Source of the DNA: Peptococcaceae bacterium
GTDB taxonomy: Bacteria > Bacillota > Peptococcia > Peptococcales > BICA1-8
Direction of reading: 5' to 3'
NCBI GenBank assembly: GCA_049366715.1
Contig: JBMNCQ010000055.1
Location: 168,542-232,541 of the forward strand
DNA length: 64,000 nucleotides
The first letter of the stretch is position 1, and the number at the start of each line of letters is the position of its first letter. Position numbers and translations under genes: made by a program. This document shows positions 7,948-60,739 of the stretch, in pieces. The notes beneath the pieces were generated by a model. That model made no database searches. It was given only the letters and a program-made list of their open reading frames with translations, and was not told the origin of the DNA.

Positions 7948-8059
7948 TAGTTTAGTTCATAGGTTATAGTTTATTAGTTTATAGTTTATGGGTTATGGGT
8001 TATGGGTTTGAGAACTGAGAACTGAGAACCGAGAACCGATAACTGAGAACCGAAAACTG
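7948..8059. repeat. heptanucleotide repeat block A: 16 phased 7-mers, (RGTTTAT-like)x9 then (AGAACYG)x7
   Basis: Read directly: TAGTTTA GTTCATA GGTTATA GTTTATT AGTTTAT AGTTTAT GGGTTAT GGGTTAT GGGTTTG AGAACTG AGAACTG AGAACCG AGAACCG ATAACTG AGAACCG AAAACTG. Confidence 0.9.
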
Positions 8060-8756: not shown

Positions 8757-9129
8757 TGTCTCCGCGGAAGGCAAGAAGCCTGCAGTATCTAGTTTAACCA
8801 ATCAGTTTTTAACCAACACCGGACATAAGGGAGTTTGGGTCTTAGGACCTATGTCAGGCCATATTTAAATAGTGGAAGGCAAAATTTCTAAGCAGAGCAC
8901 CCACCTGCGAGAGCAGGTTAAAAACAAATGGTTGACTTATACCGCGGGCCAAATAGAACTTCAACTTCTAACCTCCAATATGCGGGTTCACAGTTGACCG
9001 GCAGTGCACCTCATTGCCGGGGCACGGTGCAACTCCTGCAACCCGCTCCATACATATGTTTCTGCCCGGGCTATGCTGCTCTATTGCTACATTACGAACC
9101 TGCTTTCTAATCGGAAAAGCAGGTTTTTT
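8757..9129 (+). ncRNA. candidate orphan structured RNA (class unknown)
   Basis: 454-nt non-coding gap. Extended -10 TGCTATAAT at 8742-8750. GNRA hairpin CACCTGC-GAGA-GCAGGT (8900-8916). Helix GCGGGTT (8981-8987)/AACCCGC (9041-9047). Plus-strand terminator at 9098-9129. The only ORF (8928..9110) has no RBS. Confidence 0.3.
9098..9129 (+). terminator. rho-independent terminator (plus-strand oriented)
   Basis: AACCTGCTTTC-TAATCG-GAAAAGCAGGTT followed by TTTTTT. Confidence 0.75.
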
Positions 9130-19376: not shown

Positions 19377-19390
19377 TTTGGTACGCTCCT

Positions 19391-19652
19391 ATAGTTTATA
19401 GTTTATTGTTTATAGTTTATGGTTTTTCGTTCTCAGTTCTCAGTTCCCGGCGGGGGTGTGTCAGGGGACGGTTCTTTGACACATTTCTGTCTTGGCCTTA
19501 CATTCCGTTAGTGACCGGCGAAATTCAGATCATAGATTACCGTTCAAAGAGCATGGAGTTCTCGGTTCCCAGATACCGGTTCTCAGTTTTTTTGAGAACT
19601 AAGCACAGCTCTCCTCTGCTTGTTATAAATTCTCCATTCTCCATTCTCCATT
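19391..19652. repeat. heptanucleotide repeat block B inside the ABC transporter operon
   Basis: ATAGTTT ATAGTTT ATTGTTT ATAGTTT ATGGTTT TTCGTTC TCAGTTC TCAGTTC (19391-19446). GAGTTCT CGGTTCC CAGATAC CGGTTCT CAGTTTT (19556-19590). (ATTCTCC)x3 at 19629-19649. Hairpin GTGTCA...TGACAC at 19458-19478. Confidence 0.9.
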
Positions 19653-23218: not shown

Positions 23219-23349
23219 CGATTCAGGTAATTTCATTAATCACCTGCTTACCTGTCACTAGTCCCTGATTACTATAATCTATATTTTATATAACGCAAAG
23301 TATCAGATGGGAACCAAAAAACCGCTAACCACCAGTATGTATACCACCT

Positions 23350-30036: not shown

Positions 30037-30082
30037 TTACTGTAAACGATAACTATTACGCTCATGAAAGGAGGATTTTTAC

Positions 30083-30229
30083 ATGGCTGATAAAACTGCT
30101 AGCCAATTTGGTTTCTTTGGTGGGGAGTGTTTCTTTAACGAATGCTTCTTCGAAACTCTTTTAATGATAATCATAATTTACTGGCTTTTAAGGTGGTTAT
30201 TTGGTTTTAACTACTATGGTGCTGTTTAA
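30083..30229 (+). CDS. tiny membrane protein, family A (48 aa); not in ORF track
   Basis: MADKTASQFGFFGGECFFNECFFETLLMIIIIYWLLRWLFGFNYYGAV; AAAGGAGG RBS. Confidence 0.8.
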   Translation: MADKTASQFGFFGGECFFNECFFETLLMIIIIYWLLRWLFGFNYYGAV

Positions 30230-30286
30230 AAATTAAGCCGAGCACAAATGTCCCGGGAAAATATGTTCTTGAAAGGGGGCCTTTAC

Positions 30287-30406
30287 ATGGCAGACGGGTA
30301 CGGAAGTTGCTTTTTTAACGAATGTTTCTTTGAAACATTATTAATGATTATTATTATCTACTGGCTCTTAAGGTGGTTATTCGGCTTTAACGGCTTTGGT
30401 GTTTAA
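30287..30406 (+). CDS. tiny membrane protein, family A (39 aa); not in ORF track
   Basis: MADGYGSCFFNECFFETLLMIIIIYWLLRWLFGFNGFGV; AAAGGGGG RBS. Over the 26 shared codons it differs from the 30083 copy at 11 codons, all synonymous. Confidence 0.8.
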   Translation: MADGYGSCFFNECFFETLLMIIIIYWLLRWLFGFNGFGV

Positions 30407-30419
30407 GGCTTCTCAGATA

Positions 30420-30455
30420 AAGGGTAAAGATGGATTCCACCTTTACCCTTTTATT
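30420..30455 (+). terminator. rho-independent terminator
   Basis: AAGGGTAAAG-ATGGATTCCAC-CTTTACCCTT-TTATT. Confidence 0.7.
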
Positions 30456-30516
30456 AACTGGCAAATTCAAATTTTTAGGAAGTGAAATTTTACATAAGAG
30501 GGGGTTTTGATTAATA

Positions 30517-30645
30517 ATGACTGAAGAAAGCAGACAATACGGATATGGCGGCTTTCCTTTCGGGGGCTACTGGTGGATTTGGATAATAATAGGTGTATTA
30601 TTTTTCTTATTCTTCTTTGGCGGATGCGGCTTTGGTCCCTGCTAA
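30517..30645 (+). CDS. tiny membrane protein, family B-like / YjcZ-like (42 aa); not in ORF track
   Basis: MTEESRQYGYGGFPFGGYWWIWIIIGVLFFLFFFGGCGFGPC; AGAGGGGG RBS. Confidence 0.65.
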   Translation: MTEESRQYGYGGFPFGGYWWIWIIIGVLFFLFFFGGCGFGPC

Positions 30646-30685
30646 AATTTTTTTATCTAATATTAAAAATGAGAGGAGAATCATC

Positions 30686-30802
30686 ATGGCTGATAATGTT
30701 GCCGGTCAATTTGGTTTTGGCTACGGTTACCAATGGCTGGTTTGGGTGGCTATAATCGCCTTGGTCATTTACTTATTCGCATTTCCTTGCTGTGGAATAT
30801 AA
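30686..30802 (+). CDS. tiny membrane protein, family B / YjcZ-like (38 aa)
   Basis: MADNVAGQFGFGYGYQWLVWVAIIALVIYLFAFPCCGI; GAGAGGAG RBS; the track ORF 30593..30802 is over-extended. Confidence 0.75.
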   Translation: MADNVAGQFGFGYGYQWLVWVAIIALVIYLFAFPCCGI

Positions 30803-30834
30803 AAAAAAGGGCAGATAATACTGCCCTTTTTTTA
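30803..30834 (+). terminator. rho-independent terminator
   Basis: AAAAGGGCAG-ATAATA-CTGCCCTTTT-TTT. Confidence 0.85.
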
Positions 30835-30841
30835 TACATTA

Positions 30842-30869
30842 ACCGTTTATTAAAAAATATCATAGTATA
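30842..30869 (+). promoter_or_regulatory. sigmaK/E-type promoter candidate
   Basis: AC-N17-CATAGTATA, 44 nt upstream of ATG at 30913. Confidence 0.45.
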
Positions 30870-30912
30870 TATTGTAAACAAAATATAGCCACTCTGGAGA
30901 GGGGGTTAGCAT

Positions 30913-31035
30913 ATGGCTGATAATGTTGCCGGTCAATTCGGTTACGGTTTTGGCAACCAATGGCTGGTTTGGGTAGCTTTAATCGCTTTGATCATCTATG
31001 TGATCTGCTTCCCATACGGCGGGGGATACTGTTAG
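30913..31035 (+). CDS. tiny membrane protein, family B / YjcZ-like (40 aa); not in ORF track
   Basis: MADNVAGQFGYGFGNQWLVWVALIALIIYVICFPYGGGYC; GAGAGGGGG RBS. Confidence 0.8.
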   Translation: MADNVAGQFGYGFGNQWLVWVALIALIIYVICFPYGGGYC

Positions 31036-31121
31036 CCTTAATGAGAAGGGGTAGCGGTTCCAAACATGAACAACTAATACTAAGTCTTTATGAATTATCT
31101 ATCCTGAAAGGAGGTCACTAT

Positions 31122-31250
31122 ATGGCTGATAATGTTGCCGGTCAATTCGGTTACGGTTACGATTACGGTTCCCAATGGCTGGTCTGGGTAGCTTTAATCG
31201 CTTTGATCATCTATATTTTCTGCACCCCATACGGGGGCGGCTGGTGTTAA
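31122..31250 (+). CDS. tiny membrane protein, family B / YjcZ-like (42 aa)
   Basis: MADNVAGQFGYGYDYGSQWLVWVALIALIIYIFCTPYGGGWC; AAAGGAGG RBS; the track ORF 30960..31250 is over-extended. Confidence 0.8.
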   Translation: MADNVAGQFGYGYDYGSQWLVWVALIALIIYIFCTPYGGGWC

Positions 31251-31354
31251 TCTCGAGCCCAAGGGAGCATTAAATCCCTTCGGCTTAACCTTAAAAAGTT
31301 ACTACGTAATATCGGATACTGATTTATGATCTTTGGAAAGGAGGTTAATCACAT

Positions 31355-31477
31355 ATGACGGATAATGTTGCCGGTCAATTCGGTTTTGGTTATGGCAGTC
31401 AGTGGCTGATCTGGGTAGCTTTAATCGCTTTGATCATCTATATTTTCTGCACCCCATACGGCGGAGGATGCTGCTAA
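31355..31477 (+). CDS. tiny membrane protein, family B / YjcZ-like (40 aa); not in ORF track
   Basis: MTDNVAGQFGFGYGSQWLIWVALIALIIYIFCTPYGGGCC; AAAGGAGG RBS; shares a 52-nt identical run with the 31122 copy. Confidence 0.8.
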   Translation: MTDNVAGQFGFGYGSQWLIWVALIALIIYIFCTPYGGGCC

Positions 31478-38009: not shown

Positions 38010-38021
38010 TCGCTCCTTTTC

Positions 38022-38283
38022 GTGACAGGTGACTGGTAAGGTTCAGTTTATAGAGCATTGTTTATGAGTTTATAGTTTATAGACTATAGTTCTCAGTTCT
38101 CAGATATCGGTTCTCAGTTAATCTTAAAAACCGAGTATAGCTTATTGGCTATCTGTTCCAGGTACTGTCACAAAGTAGAACTATAGCTTACTGCCGCTGC
38201 CCGATCTCTACTTTGTACCGGTGATTAGTTACTATGAACTACATTCTATGTTCTATAAACTATTATGTTCTATATTCTTACTA
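38022..38283. repeat. heptanucleotide repeat block C: forward array, about 100-bp core with hairpin, inverted array
   Basis: 38022-38119: GTGACAG GTGACTG GTAAGGT TCAGTTT ATAGAGC ATTGTTT ATGAGTT TATAGTT TATAGAC TATAGTT CTCAGTT CTCAGAT ATCGGTT CTCAGTT. 38221-38283: GTGATTA GTTACTA TGAACTA CATTCTA TGTTCTA TAAACTA... (nnnnCTA, the inverse of TAGnnnn). Core hairpin ACAAAGTAGA/TCTACTTTGT. Confidence 0.85.
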
Positions 38284-40990: not shown

Positions 40991-41199
40991 ACTAGTGATC
41001 AGCGAAGTGACTAACGAGAAAAACTAATCACTATTACACTAATCACTAGGAATCTAATCTAATATTATTCAGAAAAAATTCATCTATGACAATGGAATAA
41101 TTTAGAACATAGATTACCGGCCCTAGCGCATAGTTCATCGAACATAAATTAGAGCGGATATGATATCGGCCGGAGCTCAGAGAACCGGGAACTGAGTAC
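40991..41199. repeat. heptanucleotide repeat block D in a divergent promoter region
   Basis: ACTAGTG ATCAGCG AAGTGAC TAACGAG AAAAACT AATCACT ATTACAC TAATCAC TAGGAAT CTAATCT. CATAGATTACCG (41108-41119) is identical to 19531-19542. GCTCAGAGAACCGGGAACTGAG lies at 41175-41196. Confidence 0.7.
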
Positions 41200-41290
41200 A
41201 ATTATTTTAAAATTAGAAAAATCATCCATTTCTAAAAATTTTTTTGGTGAATAATAATAACTATAACTTTGGAATTAAGGTGGAAACAAG

Positions 41291-42315: not shown

Positions 42316-43290
42316 TTATTTATTCAGGTCGAAAATGCCTCTAGACCTAAGAGAGGTTATTAGGCCCAGCGTTCCTAAAGCAAATAAGACAGCGGCGCCT
42401 CCATAATAAATATATTTGAGGCCGGTATGAATAAAATTGCTGGCCCCAACAAGAACTGCAGCATAAATGAAATAGGGCGTAATCCGTGTTTTGCCAAGAA
42501 TTCTTCGTTGTGCATCCTGCCAGTTCCTTTCCTGATGCTCCATACGTTTGAGGATTAAATCTTTGATATCGGCATCTTGAGGATATTTCCCGGCTTCCCT
42601 GGAAATTCTAATTAATTCTTTGCAGTCCCAAAGGATAATGTTTCTCTTGTCTTTTATCAGGTCGCAAAATATCCTGGCATCATCCCGAAAGTCTGTCGTA
42701 GATATAATAAGACCCCGAATATATTTCCGCTTACTCATGGCCCGGGAAAGCTCGCGGACATACCTGGACCCAACCGTATCCTCTCCGTCTAATAAATGAC
42801 ATTGTACTAAAGTCAGTTCACCTTGATACTTACAAATAAAATTTATCCCTTCACTTTCCAGGTAATCAGTTTTTGTTAATTCCGTAAAATCTCCCAGCTT
42901 AGCTAACACTGCAAATATAAAACTCACAAAGCTTTCTTTATCCATAGCTTTTAAACTCTTCACAAACTCCTCATTGGCCAGTTTGGCATTTTCCTTTTGT
43001 ATTACCTGAGCCAGTCGTATTTTCTCCACTCTTTTCGCCAGGAAATGATAGCATCCCAAAACCGAAATACCGGCGAATAAAGAAATTAAAACTTTATTTC
43101 CTCCGGTAAACACAAGAAAAGTAAAGAAAGATCCCCCTAACACAAGAATCCTGTAAATAAAGAAATTAAACCAACGGGTATACGCTGCCTGGCCTTTGTA
43201 CAATTGTTTTAAATAATAATCCTCTACCCTGCTTTTTTTGATACTTCTGTAAATATTAAAAACAGACTTTTTCACTTTTAATACCTCCAA
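42316..43290 (-). CDS. membrane protein with central restriction-endonuclease-like (Mrr_cat-type) domain
   Basis: 324 aa; 2 N-terminal and 2 C-terminal TM helices; ...GINFICKYQGELTLVQCHLLDGEDTVGSRYVRELSRAM......GLIISTTDFRDDA resembles the D-(E/Q)xK core of Mrr-like nucleases. Confidence 0.55.
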   Translation of the reverse strand: MEVLKVKKSVFNIYRSIKKSRVEDYYLKQLYKGQAAYTRWFNFFIYRILVLGGSFFTFLVFTGGNKVLISLFAGISVLGCYHFLAKRVEKIRLAQVIQKENAKLANEEFVKSLKAMDKESFVSFIFAVLAKLGDFTELTKTDYLESEGINFICKYQGELTLVQCHLLDGEDTVGSRYVRELSRAMSKRKYIRGLIISTTDFRDDARIFCDLIKDKRNIILWDCKELIRISREAGKYPQDADIKDLILKRMEHQERNWQDAQRRILGKTRITPYFIYAAVLVGASNFIHTGLKYIYYGGAAVLFALGTLGLITSLRSRGIFDLNK

Positions 43291-43565
43291 TTATTCATCT
43301 AGTAAAAAGGATGACCAAAAAAAGAGCGGCTTAAACACCGGTATGTATCCATTCCGTACCCTTTGGCAGTACTAAGAATAACATCATCTGTCCCGCATAC
43401 AGATGTCAATTTCTGCTGAGACAACGGTTCAGTTCCGGGGTACAGAATCCGGCCCGCAGTTTTACCACCGGTCAGCCGGTCTTCCCCAAAATATGTATCC
43501 CGTTATGTATAAAAACTTTTTCTCAATTATAAACTAAAAAAAAAACTAAAAACGGGAGGATAGAT

Positions 43566-43754
43566 ATGAATCAGCATAAAGAAGATCTGCAAAAAACTTT
43601 ATGGAACCACCAGGATAAAATGATCGCCTATCAAATGTATACGCAAGGCTATGATGACCCTGTTACTGCTTATCAAATACTGACCGGCCAAGAAGGCCCG
43701 ACTGCTCTGCAAGAAGCAGAACAAAAGGACTTCGCAGATTTTGCGGAAGAATAG
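43566..43754 (+). CDS. hypothetical acidic small protein (62 aa)
   Basis: GGGAGGA RBS; no motif recognised. Confidence 0.45.
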   Translation: MNQHKEDLQKTLWNHQDKMIAYQMYTQGYDDPVTAYQILTGQEGPTALQEAEQKDFADFAEE

Positions 43755-53140: not shown

Positions 53141-53252
53141 TAGTTAGTTTATAGAACATAGTTTATAGGGCATGGTTTATGGTTTATAAGTTGCGGTTCA
53201 CCGAATATAGCGTGTAGTTTATAAATCATTAATTTGCAATTCTCCATTATAA
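53141..53252. repeat. heptanucleotide repeat block E between carB and pyrF
   Basis: 16 phased 7-mers: TAGTTAG TTTATAG AACATAG TTTATAG GGCATGG TTTATGG TTTATAA GTTGCGG TTCACCG AATATAG CGTGTAG TTTATAA ATCATTA ATTTGCA ATTCTCC ATTATAA. Confidence 0.85.
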
Positions 53253-58914: not shown

Positions 58915-59836
58915 TAACTCTGCCTCCCCCCATGGCATAAAGTAGTGCCATTCTCACTGCCACACCATTTGTGACCTGTTCTTCAATTACCGATTGACAG
59001 CTTTCGGCCACTTCACCCGTTATTTCAATTCCTCTATTCATTGGTCCGGGATGCATGACTAAAGCATCCTCCCGGGCCAGCCTTAATTTAGATTTATTTA
59101 ATCCATACAGCTTGGCATACTCCCTTACCGAAGGAAAGAGACCTTTCTTTTGCCGTTCTAATTGTATCCTGAGCATTATAACAACGTCTGCATCCTGCAG
59201 AGCCTTCTCCATATCCCAGGTAACGGTAACACCAAGTTGTTCCACTTGTGAAGGCAGCAGCGTCGGCGGACCGCAAACCCAGACATCCCCCCCGAGGAGG
59301 TTCAAGCCGATAATATTGGAACGGGCTACTCTACTGTGCAGCACATCGCCGATAATGGCAATTTTTCTACCTTCAATACTGCCTTTACGTTCAAGAATCG
59401 TATACATATCCAGAAGCCCTTGGGTAGGATGTTCATGGGTTCCGTCCCCGGCATTAATTACCCGGGCTTTAACAGCTTTGGCCAAAATATGATGGGCCCC
59501 GCTGGACGGATGACGCATTACAACAACATCAGCGCCCATGCTGTCAATGGTTTTAGCCGTATCCCGCAAGCTCTCTCCTTTCGCCACACTACTTGAGCCG
59601 GCCGCGATATTAATCACATCCGCACCCATATATTTTCCTGCCAGTTCAAAAGAAGTCCGGGTCCGGGTACTGTTTTCATAAAACAGGTTAATTACGGCTC
59701 TCCCCCTCAAAGTAGGTACTTTTTTTATTTCCCTGCCGATAATTTCTTTCATAGACTTGGTATTGATAAATATTTCCTTAATTTCTTGCACGGTTAAATC
59801 GGACAGGCTAAGCAAATTCTTACTGGCAATACCCAC
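58901..59836 (-). CDS. pyrB: aspartate carbamoyltransferase catalytic subunit (GTG start)
   Basis: 311 aa; [23 protein letters not shown]. Confidence 0.95.
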
Positions 59837-59873: not shown

Positions 59874-60048
59874 TAGTTTATAGTTTGGTGATTAGTAATT
59901 AGTGACTGGTGACTGGTAACTAATCATAGTATCAGTAAAGTTCATAGAGCATAGTTTATCGTTTAGTGACTAGTGATTAGTAACTGGCATAGTTAAGTTT
60001 ATAGTTTATAGTTCTCAGTTCTCAGTTCTCAATTAGTTAGTTAGTGAC
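59874..60048. repeat. heptanucleotide repeat block F in the pyrB leader: 25 phased 7-mers (175 nt)
   Basis: TAGTTTA TAGTTTG GTGATTA GTAATTA GTGACTG GTGACTG GTAACTA ATCATAG TATCAGT AAAGTTC ATAGAGC ATAGTTT ATCGTTT AGTGACT AGTGATT AGTAACT GGCATAG TTAAGTT TATAGTT TATAGTT CTCAGTT CTCAGTT CTCAATT AGTTAGT TAGTGAC. Confidence 0.9.
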
Positions 60049-60170
60049 CGGCAAGTTTTTTGAGCAGATGTATCACTCAAAGTATTCCCTAAGAAACAGA
60101 TCCTAATAGTTTCACATTGCGCTGCTTCCGGATAAGCAATTGGTTTATTGCCCTATTTAAGTCTGATCTA

Positions 60171-60297
60171 TAAAAAGCCGGGTCTGTTCGACCCGGCAAG
60201 TTTCCTAAAAATAAGCTGCAGGTGACAGCAGAACTTACTACTCTACGATCAGTCACCAACACTGTCCTTGCCGGCCTCTCCGGACCGATTTAAAGGC
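60171..60297 (-). promoter_or_regulatory. PyrR-type transcription attenuator 1 (binding loop, antiterminator, terminator)
   Basis: Minus-strand RNA: CCUUUAAAUCGGUCCGGAGAGGCCGGCAAGGACAG (60263-60297) resembles the PyrR binding-loop consensus (UCCAGAGAGGCU...CAAGG). CCGGCAAG can pair with CUUGCCGG of the terminator GCCGGGUC-GAACA-GACCCGGC-UUUUUA (60171-60197). Confidence 0.7.
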
Positions 60298-60380
60298 TCC
60301 TTTATTTATTTGTCTACATCTCTAAGCTCTCGTTTATTTATTGCTCTACAGCTCCAAGCTGTTATTCTGTAGTATTTATA

Positions 60381-60530
60381 TAAAAAACCGGGTCTTTTCG
60401 ACCCGGCAAGTATATTAAGCAATACGAATGATAGCAGAATGAACTTATCCTTATGCTGGCAGCCACTGATTAACAAGTCGTAACCGTCACTGCTGTCCTT
60501 GCCGGCCTCTCCGGACCGATTTAAAGGCTT
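60381..60530 (-). promoter_or_regulatory. PyrR-type transcription attenuator 2 (distal tandem copy)
   Basis: Same architecture: GCCUUUAAAUCGGUCCGGAGAGGCCGGCAAGGACAG (60494-60530) and terminator CUUGCCGGGUC-GAAAA-GACCCGG-UUUUUUA (60381-60410). The 35-nt binding-loop segment is identical to attenuator 1. Confidence 0.7.
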
Positions 60531-60739
60531 ATTATTTATTTATTTCATTATATCCTTAGCAAAAGATAAAGACAAGCTATTTTACTAAAAATCATATTAT
60601 TGCTATAATATTTCTCTGAGGTTACTTTTTTGGTCAGGAGTTCTCTTTCTGGCTACTTTGCCGGTCAGTTTGTCTGCCCGGTAAGCTTCGCCACTGGCTA
60701 ACCTGACCAACCCATGAGAAAAGAATAGAGGAGATTATT

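Follow-up and report, generated by a model that had tools for sequence, protein, structure and literature searches.

A stretch of 64,000 nucleotides from a Peptococcaceae bacterium (Bacillota; BICA1-8), positions 168,542 to 232,541 of contig JBMNCQ010000055.1 in assembly GCA_049366715.1 and referred to below as the window, contains six intergenic blocks (A to F) with tandem arrays of heptanucleotide units from a small common vocabulary. In appearance they correspond to the heptamer repeats known from cyanobacteria and giant sulfur bacteria. With a probability of roughly 0.6 the blocks represent a dispersed heptamer family of the STRR/TAACTGA type, which would have grown by slippage, been copied between loci and been filtered by selection in untranslated regions (UTRs). 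One of them, block F, is located in the leader of pyrB, as had been stated in a preceding reading of the letters alone (here called the sequence-only reading). All counts within the genome come from this 64-kb window of one genome, a limit which also bears on the explanation favoured here.

Period-7 arrays and their vocabulary

The sequence-only reading had named six loci with heptamer arrays, and period-7 arrays were indeed found at all six by Tandem Repeats Finder (TRF). In addition, the sliding self-match, defined as the share of positions identical to the base p ahead in windows of W=42, reached a peak of 0.857 at p=7 only, with all other periods from 3 to 12 at or below 0.69. The best value over periods 4–12 in 30 dinucleotide-preserving shuffles of the window was 0.643, and period 7 is the sole period of 4–12 that exceeds the shuffled controls.

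The six blocks make up 1.77 % of the window and hold most of the vocabulary. On the plus strand 14 of 18 copies of TAGTTTA lie inside the blocks, as do all seven copies of CTCAGTT, 9 of 13 of TATAGTT and 7 of 10 of AGTTCTC, and the density of the vocabulary in the blocks is concentrated about 40-fold. Out of about 1,170 possible heptamer classes, the AAACTAT class recurs at five loci and the AACTGAG class at four to five. Because of the period-7 self-match in comparison to the shuffles and the concentration of the vocabulary in the blocks, the arrays and their shared vocabulary are far beyond chance.

The regularity of whole blocks is uneven. Phase coherence over the whole block was found in A and E only. 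Block A has a lag-7 identity of 0.73 and a period-7 Fourier power of 4.92 (shuffle maximum 2.69), and the power of block E (2.89) lies above 500 of 500 shuffles. Blocks B and C equal their shuffles in this respect, and block D, with a lag-7 identity of 0.40 and a weak power no higher than in shuffles, belongs to the family as a weak member. In block F the power was 1.62 versus 0.71 ± 0.40 in the shuffles, below the largest shuffle value, and phase shifts are visible. The earlier statement that register is kept over the 175 nt of block F could therefore not be upheld, and the 25 units ascribed to this block are merely 175 divided by 7, with about 17 recognisable vocabulary units. Likewise, the description of the blocks as consisting almost wholly of units has to be given up for B, C and D, in each of which about 110–180 nt are non-periodic.

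Modules shared between loci

The loci also share longer imperfect modules. A 32-nt module, AGTTCTC(A/G)GTTC(T/C)CAGATA(T/C)CGGTTCTCAGTT, is 91 % identical between block B (19557–19588) and block C (38088–38119) and occurs inverted in block A (8027–8058, 88 %). Blocks B (19522–19554) and D share 33 nt at 79 % identity, the stop-codon-proximal ends of B and E are 78 % identical, and GCCGGTCACTAAC is present on the minus strand in B and F. Of two recurring words named by the sequence-only reading, CATAGATTACCG was recovered at both 19531 and 41108 (blocks B and D). The other, CATAGAGCAT, had been assigned to C and F and is present in F only; the word shared by these two blocks is the 9-mer ATAGAGCAT. 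Since local independent slippage cannot yield shared imperfect modules of this kind, the arrays must, as judged from their sequences, have been copied between loci and are probably not of independent origin.

Position, orientation and transcription of the arrays

Each block fills the interval from the stop codon of one gene to the Shine–Dalgarno (SD) site of the next, and the earlier statement that every block lies between two minus-strand genes is correct. All blocks are non-coding, situated between open reading frames (ORFs) with family assignments or clear start sites, and in six of six blocks the array ends 0–27 nt from the SD. On the sense (minus) strand the array units read AUAAACU, GAGAACU, CAGUCAC/UAGUCAC/UAAUCAC, AUAACCC and GGAGAAU. 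Most of them fit the pattern NNN-(A/C)AC-Y, which on the other strand appears as a YAGT-type core (TAGTTTA, CAGTTCT, TAGTGAC). A run of the AUAAACU type forms the SD-nearest part of blocks A, B, C, E and F. Orientation is variable in other respects: the GAGAACT run of block A lies on the strand opposite to its counterparts in B, C and F, D has the reverse orientation of F, and each of the blocks A, C and D contains both orientations. Units with an AACT core are sense next to the SD in most blocks (about 13 sense and 5 antisense arrays by our own count); here transcription and replication orientation are confounded, as the host genes are one-stranded with one exception.

That the arrays are transcribed, as had been assumed, is by inference well founded for blocks B, E and F. 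Blocks B and E are located inside an ATP-binding cassette (ABC) transporter operon and the pyr operon, respectively, and block F as transcribed leader RNA is well founded because it lies downstream of the pyr promoter, the PyrR attenuators and their terminators. A role of the arrays as promoter makers was considered and rejected, since promoter-like sites are not clearly enriched and both the best promoter and the terminators are those of the pyr leader itself.

The predicted folding of the array RNA differs between blocks. The spacer RNA of block C (38010–38283, minus strand) is more stable than expected (z = −4.06; 0 of 200 shuffles as stable), because the right end of this block repeats its left arrays in inverted form (inverted repeats I8, I11 and I15), which gives a long RNA hairpin. 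The sense folds of the block F leader and the block B spacer are like those of shuffles (z = +0.60 and −0.45). Neither a structured element nor a structure-free spacer can thus be regarded as a general property of the arrays, with F and B folding as shuffles and only C structured.

Orthologous junctions in related genomes

Relatives were reached through homologues of PyrB and of the ABC transporter ATPase encoded next to block B. In the repeat-poor relatives L002, L003 and L129 (PyrB 83 % identical) both PyrR attenuators are present, and the distance from the second terminator to the pyrB start is about 40 nt in L002 versus about 330 nt in the window. The carB–pyrF spacer has 24 nt in L002 and 153 nt in the window. 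Two further relatives, L448 and L450 (ATPase 74 % identical), possess the same operon for UbiA, substrate-binding protein (SBP), ATPase and permease with an SBP–ATPase spacer of 14 and 58 nt, respectively, in comparison to 279 nt in the window. No period-7 segment was detected in L450, and L448 gave one weak match which is not an array.

Arrays at these junctions do occur in BICA1-8 and SAHD, with units and orientations that differ from those of the window. L125 (BICA1-8; PyrB 83 % identical) carries them in the pyrB leader and in the carB–pyrF, pyrE–pyrK and pyrK–pyrD spacers; its units include TAGTCAC/CAGTCAC, TATAGTC/TATAGAC, TAGCCAC and CAATAGT, and its carB–pyrF block is oriented opposite to its other pyr blocks. 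Runs of (Y)AGTCAC/TAGCCAC immediately before the pyrB SD were found in L001 (PyrB 85 %) and L127 (79 %). When the last ~110–127 nt of five leaders are aligned, a CCAGTCAC(C/T)AGTCAC array is common to four of them (window, L001, L125 and L127); the leader of L002 has none.

Because arrays are present, absent or remodelled at orthologous junctions of relatives, they belong to a clade and not to the window alone, and they have been gained, lost and remodelled at these sites. At least one array has persisted or was maintained over considerable divergence. A restriction of the repeats to the window, which had been named as a possible outcome, does not apply in view of the pyr-junction arrays of L125, L001 and L127 and of the AGTTCTC arrays in many phyla described below. 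In L001 and L125 the contig breaks off about 216 and 268 nt, respectively, upstream of pyrB, which would be expected if short-read assembly fails in a repeat-rich leader. A metagenome scan with a 21-mer of the PyrR loop yielded 44 loci, most of them of high G+C, none of which matches the window in BLAST or carries heptamer arrays.

Other kinds of repeats were observed in the same relatives, and operon junctions are generally repeat-laden in the clade. Octamer arrays (CTACAGTT/CTACAGTG and ACTATCAC/ACTCTCAA) are present in L125 (1–60 and 7201–7253), L002 (9855–9903) and L127 (9891–9941), and some of the relatives' octamer arrays lie inside the variable (antiterminator) part of PyrR attenuators. 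Inside both of its attenuators L127 carries (TAGTGGC)n, and the complementary sequence (TAGCCAC)n adjoins its pyrB SD. Further repeat families fill pyr-operon spacers in L125 (3543–3875, carA–carB spacer) and L127 (16498–16788); one is built from units a few tens of nucleotides long that contain GTCGGCATGATGGC and have inverted partners, the other from repeated GGATGCATC palindromes.

Heptamer arrays in other phyla and in viral contigs

An exact search for (AGTTCTC)3 with one genome per species gave at least 120 stretches, the chance expectation in 596 Gb being about 0.3 by our own estimate. Among the matches listed, Acidobacteriota are the most frequent, and Planctomycetota, Verrucomicrobiota, Chloroflexota, Bacteroidota (Fulvivirga, Salegentibacter, Proteiniphilum), Ruminococcaceae, Synergistota, a Streptomyces and an archaeon are also represented; as the scan order is unknown, these proportions are not representative. 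The loci show the same unit switching as the window, namely from CAGTTCT to CAGTTAT, CAGTTTT, CAGTTGT or CAGTTCC, and TCAGTTA is the reverse complement of the published repeat TAACTGA. Because AGTTCTC arrays occur in many other phyla, the phenomenon is not specific to this genus, and heptamer arrays are much more widespread than described.

The gene context of 103 of the listed loci was derived with a crude self-trained codon model, whose start-codon distances are biased by ORF extension and were not relied on. Among these matches 97 of 107 arrays are intergenic, and they occupy co-directional, divergent and convergent spacers in both orientations. Where the upstream gene lies on the CAGTTCT strand, its stop codon precedes the array start by 2–32 nt (30 of 32 cases among the matches listed). 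In other phyla (e.g. L051, 7764–7917; L118; L064) the stop codon is sometimes part of the first unit, and the far side of the array is typically 100–200 nt from the next gene, an asymmetric placement.

To control for sequence specificity, exact triple tandems of vocabulary, published and control heptamers were counted in 2.9 million IMG/VR viral contigs, a sample short of a full census. The vocabulary units AGTTCTC, GTGACTG and TAGTTTA were found in 13, 19 and at least 120 viral stretches, respectively, and the published repeat TAACTGA in 107. The control heptamers, which do not possess an AGT/ACT core, gave 3 (ATCGTCT), 4 (TTGCATC), 2 (TCTTCGA) and 6 (ATACGAT) stretches. The first three of them match AGTTCTC in composition and ATACGAT matches TAACTGA; TAGTTTA is without an exactly matched control. 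Several of the TAGTTTA matches belong to giant-virus bins.

Origin of the arrays

In an STRR/TAACTGA-type family the arrays would arise and change in size by slipped-strand mispairing or unequal exchange of 7-nt units. Recombination copying pre-existing arrays would seed or homogenise them between loci, the arrays themselves supplying the homology. Retention would be expected only where an array is harmless, i.e. in stop-to-SD spacers and 5′UTRs, and selection would filter unit type and orientation, favouring orientations that create no start codons. The sense units contain stop codons in most and start codons in no case; GTG or ATG is present in the reverse units GTGACTG, GTGATTA and TTATGGG. 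Since the arrays are transcribed, operon junctions would be lengthened and uncoupled: tightly coupled junctions of 14–58 nt would become, as a by-product, untranslated stretches of 150–330 nt. Inverted copies such as those of block C would make long RNA hairpins of the RNase III type, and arrays may as a side effect influence translation or mRNA processing. A stop-codon insulator, in which the units close all three reading frames, was dropped as a main argument, since about five of eight sense units contain stops by our own count, which is not clearly above expectation.

Several observations weigh against this explanation. Slippage is not directly evidenced, as no length polymorphism was found: the paired assemblies L125/L126 and L127/L128 are identical, and searches gave no strain nearly identical to the window genome. 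Slippage alone also leaves the recurrence of the same units across loci and phyla unexplained, and the viral counts suggest that these particular units are favoured over control heptamers. Four lineages, with PyrB proteins only 79–85 % identical and a flanking leader sequence that cannot be aligned, have retained a CCAGTCACCAGT array 5′ of the pyrB SD; its persistence looks like constraint rather than drift. Furthermore, units of the AUAAACU type lie on the sense strand next to the SD in six of six cases, including a mini-array on the plus strand (43531–43553), and in co-directional spacers of other phyla GAGAACT-sense arrays outnumber the reverse by 34 to 19 (crude gene calls, among the matches listed).

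Alternative explanations

None of the four roles suggested by the sequence-only reading, i.e. protein-binding arrays, mRNA processing or stability elements, slippage-prone contingency spacers and decayed MITE-like elements, has been demonstrated, and the explanations related to them differ in how well they agree with the data. It is possible, although rather unlikely, that the arrays serve as periodic mRNA binding platforms for an abundant protein that binds single-stranded nucleic acids with a footprint of about 7 nt, for example a cold-shock-domain, S1-like or ring-shaped protein. Through them such a protein would control translation initiation or mRNA stability of downstream genes, in a post-transcriptional network that includes the pyr operon. 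The position of the arrays 0–27 nt from the SD in all blocks, the constant sense orientation of the AUAAACU-type units and the fact that four lineages have conserved a CCAGUCACCAGU array ahead of the pyrB SD are in favour of this, as is the excess of vocabulary units over control heptamers in viral contigs. TAACTGA, which corresponds to GAU-AAC-U, is likewise found in forward orientation near start codons in BOGUAY and Flexibacter (MacGregor 2015, PMC4679880). In addition, the deletion of heptamer repeats in Nostoc alters the expression of recF/recO reporters, with no partner identified (bioRxiv 10.1101/2022.06.06.494920).

However, no candidate protein has been identified, and both orientations of the arrays occur within one BICA1-8 operon and within blocks A, C and D. 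Arrays in other phyla are also situated in convergent spacers and right after stop codons, some close relatives do not have arrays at the same junctions, and the array RNA of F and B is neither more nor less structured than shuffles. RNA operators of the HutP and TRAP type consist of at least three (Y/N)AG triplets on the sense strand, in HutP with a fixed 7-nt spacing, and are read by a cognate ring protein. Runs of at least three (YAG-N4) units number 8 in the window versus 3.5 expected (shuffle maximum 9) and are mostly antisense; as the runs are not enriched, a HutP-like (YAG-N4)n operator is less likely.

A wider form of this idea is quite unlikely. It would regard the heptamers with an AACT/YAGT core (GAGAACU, GAUAACU = TAACTGA, AUAAACU and CAGUCAC) as a cross-phylum cis code read by a conserved factor that binds single-stranded nucleic acids with a 7-nt footprint, which in this lineage would define an SD-adjacent post-transcriptional regulon and act on the pyr operon after PyrR attenuation.

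By analogy with hmw of Haemophilus influenzae, the arrays might also be expression rheostats of the contingency type, in which heptamer copy number would tune the downstream gene via 5′UTR structure and RNase III. The heptamers do lie in transcribed 5′UTR or intercistronic RNA, and the long hairpin of block C with repeats on both arms resembles the hmw hairpin. This is nevertheless improbable: the targets are housekeeping genes (pyr operon, ABC importer, peptidyl-prolyl isomerase), with no surface or virulence gene among them, each array is a mosaic of 2–7-copy runs instead of a long pure tract, no copy-number polymorphism was found in the paired assemblies, and F and B are without special structure.

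Little probability is likewise left for decayed or active non-autonomous elements resembling miniature inverted-repeat transposable elements (MITEs) which carry the heptamer arrays. The blocks appear as insertions when compared with the repeat-free junctions of relatives, several of them have longer modules in common, and block C has inverted ends. An inverted-repeat element of about 270 nt bounded by GGGGACGGTT ... AACCGTCCCC is found in the carB–pyrF spacer of L001 (6900–7180), and one exact arm of it lies inside block B (19464–19473). However, the blocks have no common termini, length or internal order, only C has inverted ends, unit composition and orientation differ between blocks, and no transposase is associated with them. 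Target-site duplications were not noticed when the junctions were read by eye, no dedicated search having been run. A classical MITE is thus not supported, and a MITE with GGGGACGGTT termini was rejected, since this 10-mer is not enriched in the window (6 matches vs 3.0 expected).

Independent neutral microsatellites, i.e. local slippage at unrelated loci, are very improbable: the arrays are imperfect and variable between relatives, and heptanucleotides are, as reported at second hand, the commonest long simple-sequence repeats (SSRs) in many prokaryotes (Mrazek et al. 2007, via PMC4679880), but the same few of about 1,170 unit classes recur at four to five loci each, 32-nt imperfect modules are shared at 88–91 % identity and the vocabulary is common to other genera, which contradicts slippage that is purely neutral and independent.

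The individual blocks and their surroundings

Block A (7948–8059) extends from the stop codon of a nitroreductase-like gene (8061) towards the start of a peptidyl-prolyl isomerase gene (7928) and is composed of (TAGTTTA)n at 7953–7989, (TTATGGG)3.3 at 7986–8008 and (TGAGAAC)7.3 at 8009–8059 (TRF). A GATAACT unit lies inside it. About 700 nt away, between minus-strand genes, a 6S/SsrS RNA gene is located on the plus strand (8774–8954; RF00013, 54.2 bits, above the gathering score). It is the sole above-threshold Rfam match in the window; no Rfam family was found in any block.

In block B the SD-proximal arrays, (TATAGTT)5.1 followed by (GTTCTCA)2.6 at 19390–19446, abut the GGAG Shine–Dalgarno site of the ABC transporter ATPase gene (start 19376) in the UbiA–SBP–ATPase–permease operon. 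They are followed by a non-periodic core (19447–19628; fold z as given above) with a small GTTCTCA/TGAGAAC hairpin. The distal array, (ATTCTCC)3.4 at 19629–19652 or (GGAGAAU)3 on the sense strand, is situated directly past the stop codon of the SBP gene (19656). A degenerate patch at about 23240–23285 with GTCACTAGTC and GATTACTATAATC lies in a convergent spacer.

The arrays of block C at 38022–38119, which consist of GTGACAG/GTGACTG, (AGTTTAT)6.6 and (AGTTCTC)4.6 (TRF), adjoin the SD of a DUF3842 gene (start 38009), and the gene on the other flank is without family assignment. The right end of this block (38231–38283) is the inverted copy mentioned above, with arrays of the TAGTTTA/TAGAACA type. 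Block D (40991–41199), upstream of a DUF441 gene (start 40992), contains (ACTAATC)3.6 at 41023–41048 and GAGAACC/GGGAACT at 41180–41200 with a non-periodic middle. The stretch of about 1.3 kb of non-coding DNA which holds block D is adjoined by a gene for a protein with an Mrr-type restriction endonuclease domain (42316–43290, minus strand). The plus-strand mini-array, (AAACTAA)3.6 at 43531–43553, stands immediately 5′ of a GGGAGG SD and is followed by an ORF of 62 amino acids (43566–43754) that has no Pfam hit and whose status as a gene is uncertain. Block E (53141–53252) in the carB–pyrF spacer of the pyr operon is an array of the TAGTTTA/TAGAACA type with a 14-nt superperiod.

A different group of repeats is present at 30082–31476, where four repeats of about 125 nt (69–86 % identical, spacing about 215–227 nt) and related repeats of 94 and 33 nt may mark a cluster of small paralogous genes.

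Block F and the pyrB leader

On the minus strand the pyrB leader consists, in this order, of a promoter-like site, two PyrR attenuators, about 120 nt of unique sequence, block F, the SD and a GTG start at 59836. Block F (59874–60048) is composed of the units TAGTTTA, GTGATTA/GTGACTG/GTAACTA, AGTGACT and (AGTTCTC)3.1. The promoter-like site TTGTCT-17-TATAAT at 60575–60547 is located just upstream of attenuator 1 (60380–60531, minus strand; terminator 60407–60387). This attenuator and attenuator 2 (60170–60300, minus strand; terminator 60197–60177) match Rfam RF00515 with 36.9 and 38.4 bits, respectively, both below the gathering score of 54. They share an exact 37-nt duplicate of the binding loop (D14), and their terminators, clearly of the intrinsic type, are 88 % identical. 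A 32-nt tandem duplication (60297–60360) lies between them. The same attenuator architecture is present in relatives, and block F is downstream of the attenuators and not part of them.

Complementarity between attenuator 2 and the arrays was noted. Its GGUGACUG segment forms a long-range helix with the CAGUCACC array in the minimum free energy fold, in which the z value of the whole leader is only −1.41. GGUGACUGAUCGUAG in its variable region (60250–60265, minus strand) is complementary, including G-U pairs, to CUAUGAUUAGUUACCAGUCACC of block F (59900–59925) about 340 nt downstream and is paired with it in the leader fold.

Comparison with known heptamer systems

Knowledge of heptamer arrays dates back to 1990 for cyanobacteria and to 2015 for giant sulfur bacteria, and we know of no accepted mechanism or function for them. 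In the searchable literature, which is incomplete, no such repeats are described for Peptococcaceae, Clostridia or other Firmicutes, so that the earlier statement of no Firmicute equivalent holds to this extent; equivalents outside cyanobacteria are already described (PMC4679880). As far as can be told, the family is new for Firmicutes and of a kind already described in three other phyla. Because a related core unit fills operon junctions of a Firmicute and identical AGTTCTC arrays occur in many phyla, a general cause is indicated and an explanation specific to cyanobacteria is disfavoured; the cause might lie in replication or repair, or be a binding factor that is widely conserved. Cultured carriers for testing are Granulicella sp. 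L46, Fulvivirga imtechensis AK7, Proteiniphilum sp. X52 and Salegentibacter holothuriorum. In practice, the arrays break short-read assemblies at operon leaders and inflate the 'intergenic' length in metagenome-assembled genomes.

Among the known systems, REP/BIME and MITE-type repeats are comparable in being dispersed, operon-internal, transcribed and capable of hairpins (block C). However, the window arrays have no palindromic unit of fixed length and no conserved termini, and their defining trait is the tandem periodicity of 7 nt. For the long SSR class Mrazek, Guo and Shah are said to have found in 2007 that prokaryotic repeats with units of 5–11 nt are mostly intergenic and to have attributed them to polymerase slippage. 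This class agrees with the arrays in the heptanucleotide period but does not predict their shared vocabulary or imperfect modules.

The one worked-out mechanism for a transcribed heptamer tract is that of hmw. In H. influenzae the transcript of an (ATCTTTC)n tract upstream of hmw1A makes up one arm of a long hairpin that RNase III cleaves, and expression is inverse to the copy number of the tract (PMC12721329). The transcribed 5′UTR heptamers and the long repeat hairpin are comparable to the window and to block C, respectively. In contrast to the many short mixed arrays in housekeeping operons of the window, hmw, with two paralogous virulence loci, has a single pure tract whose copies number at least 11.

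The STRR sequences of heterocystous cyanobacteria, reportedly described by Mazel and colleagues in 1990, consist of tandem 7-nt units. Several unit families are often adjacent to each other, and they are intergenic or intercistronic in both orientations; the units of STRR1, STRR2 and STRR3 are CCCCAGT, TTGGTCA and CAACAGT. The comparison with STRRs made by the sequence-only reading has proved sound, in that tandem heptamers, adjoining unit types and a dispersed intergenic location are common to both, with few unit families (six blocks and two patches in 64 kb). STRR1 and STRR3 also share the YAGT core with TAGTTTA, CAGTTCT and CAGTCAC. The host lineage is different (an uncultured member of the Peptococcaceae, Firmicutes, represented by a metagenome-assembled genome), the window arrays are short mosaics of 2–7 copies, and none of the STRR1-3 units occurs in tandem in the window. 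The blocks are thus of the STRR type and not members of the named STRR1-3 families.

TAACTGA direct repeats are intergenic in Beggiatoaceae, 15 cyanobacteria and 5 Bacteroidetes and are often mixed with other heptamers (MacGregor 2015, PMC4679880). In the BOGUAY genome and Flexibacter most of them point forward and stand directly upstream of start codons, in Microcystis all orientations occur, and Cyanothece strains differ by repeat indels in 7-nt steps. Relatives without repeats have shorter spacers, and contigs end within repeats. Translational regulation via S1-, Csp- or CsrA-like proteins was proposed by the author, the mechanism not being established (PMC4679880). The window arrays differ in lineage and in their remaining vocabulary (TAAACTA, CAGTCAC, GGAGAAT), and they stop before a canonical SD instead of replacing it. 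Tandem TAACTGA (two units) is absent from the window, and tandem GAACTGA occurs three times. The two systems agree in their intergenic location near start codons, the mixture of heptamers, the short spacers of repeat-free relatives and the contig breaks, and the main window unit GAGAACT (= GAACTGA) is only one mismatch away from TAACTGA.

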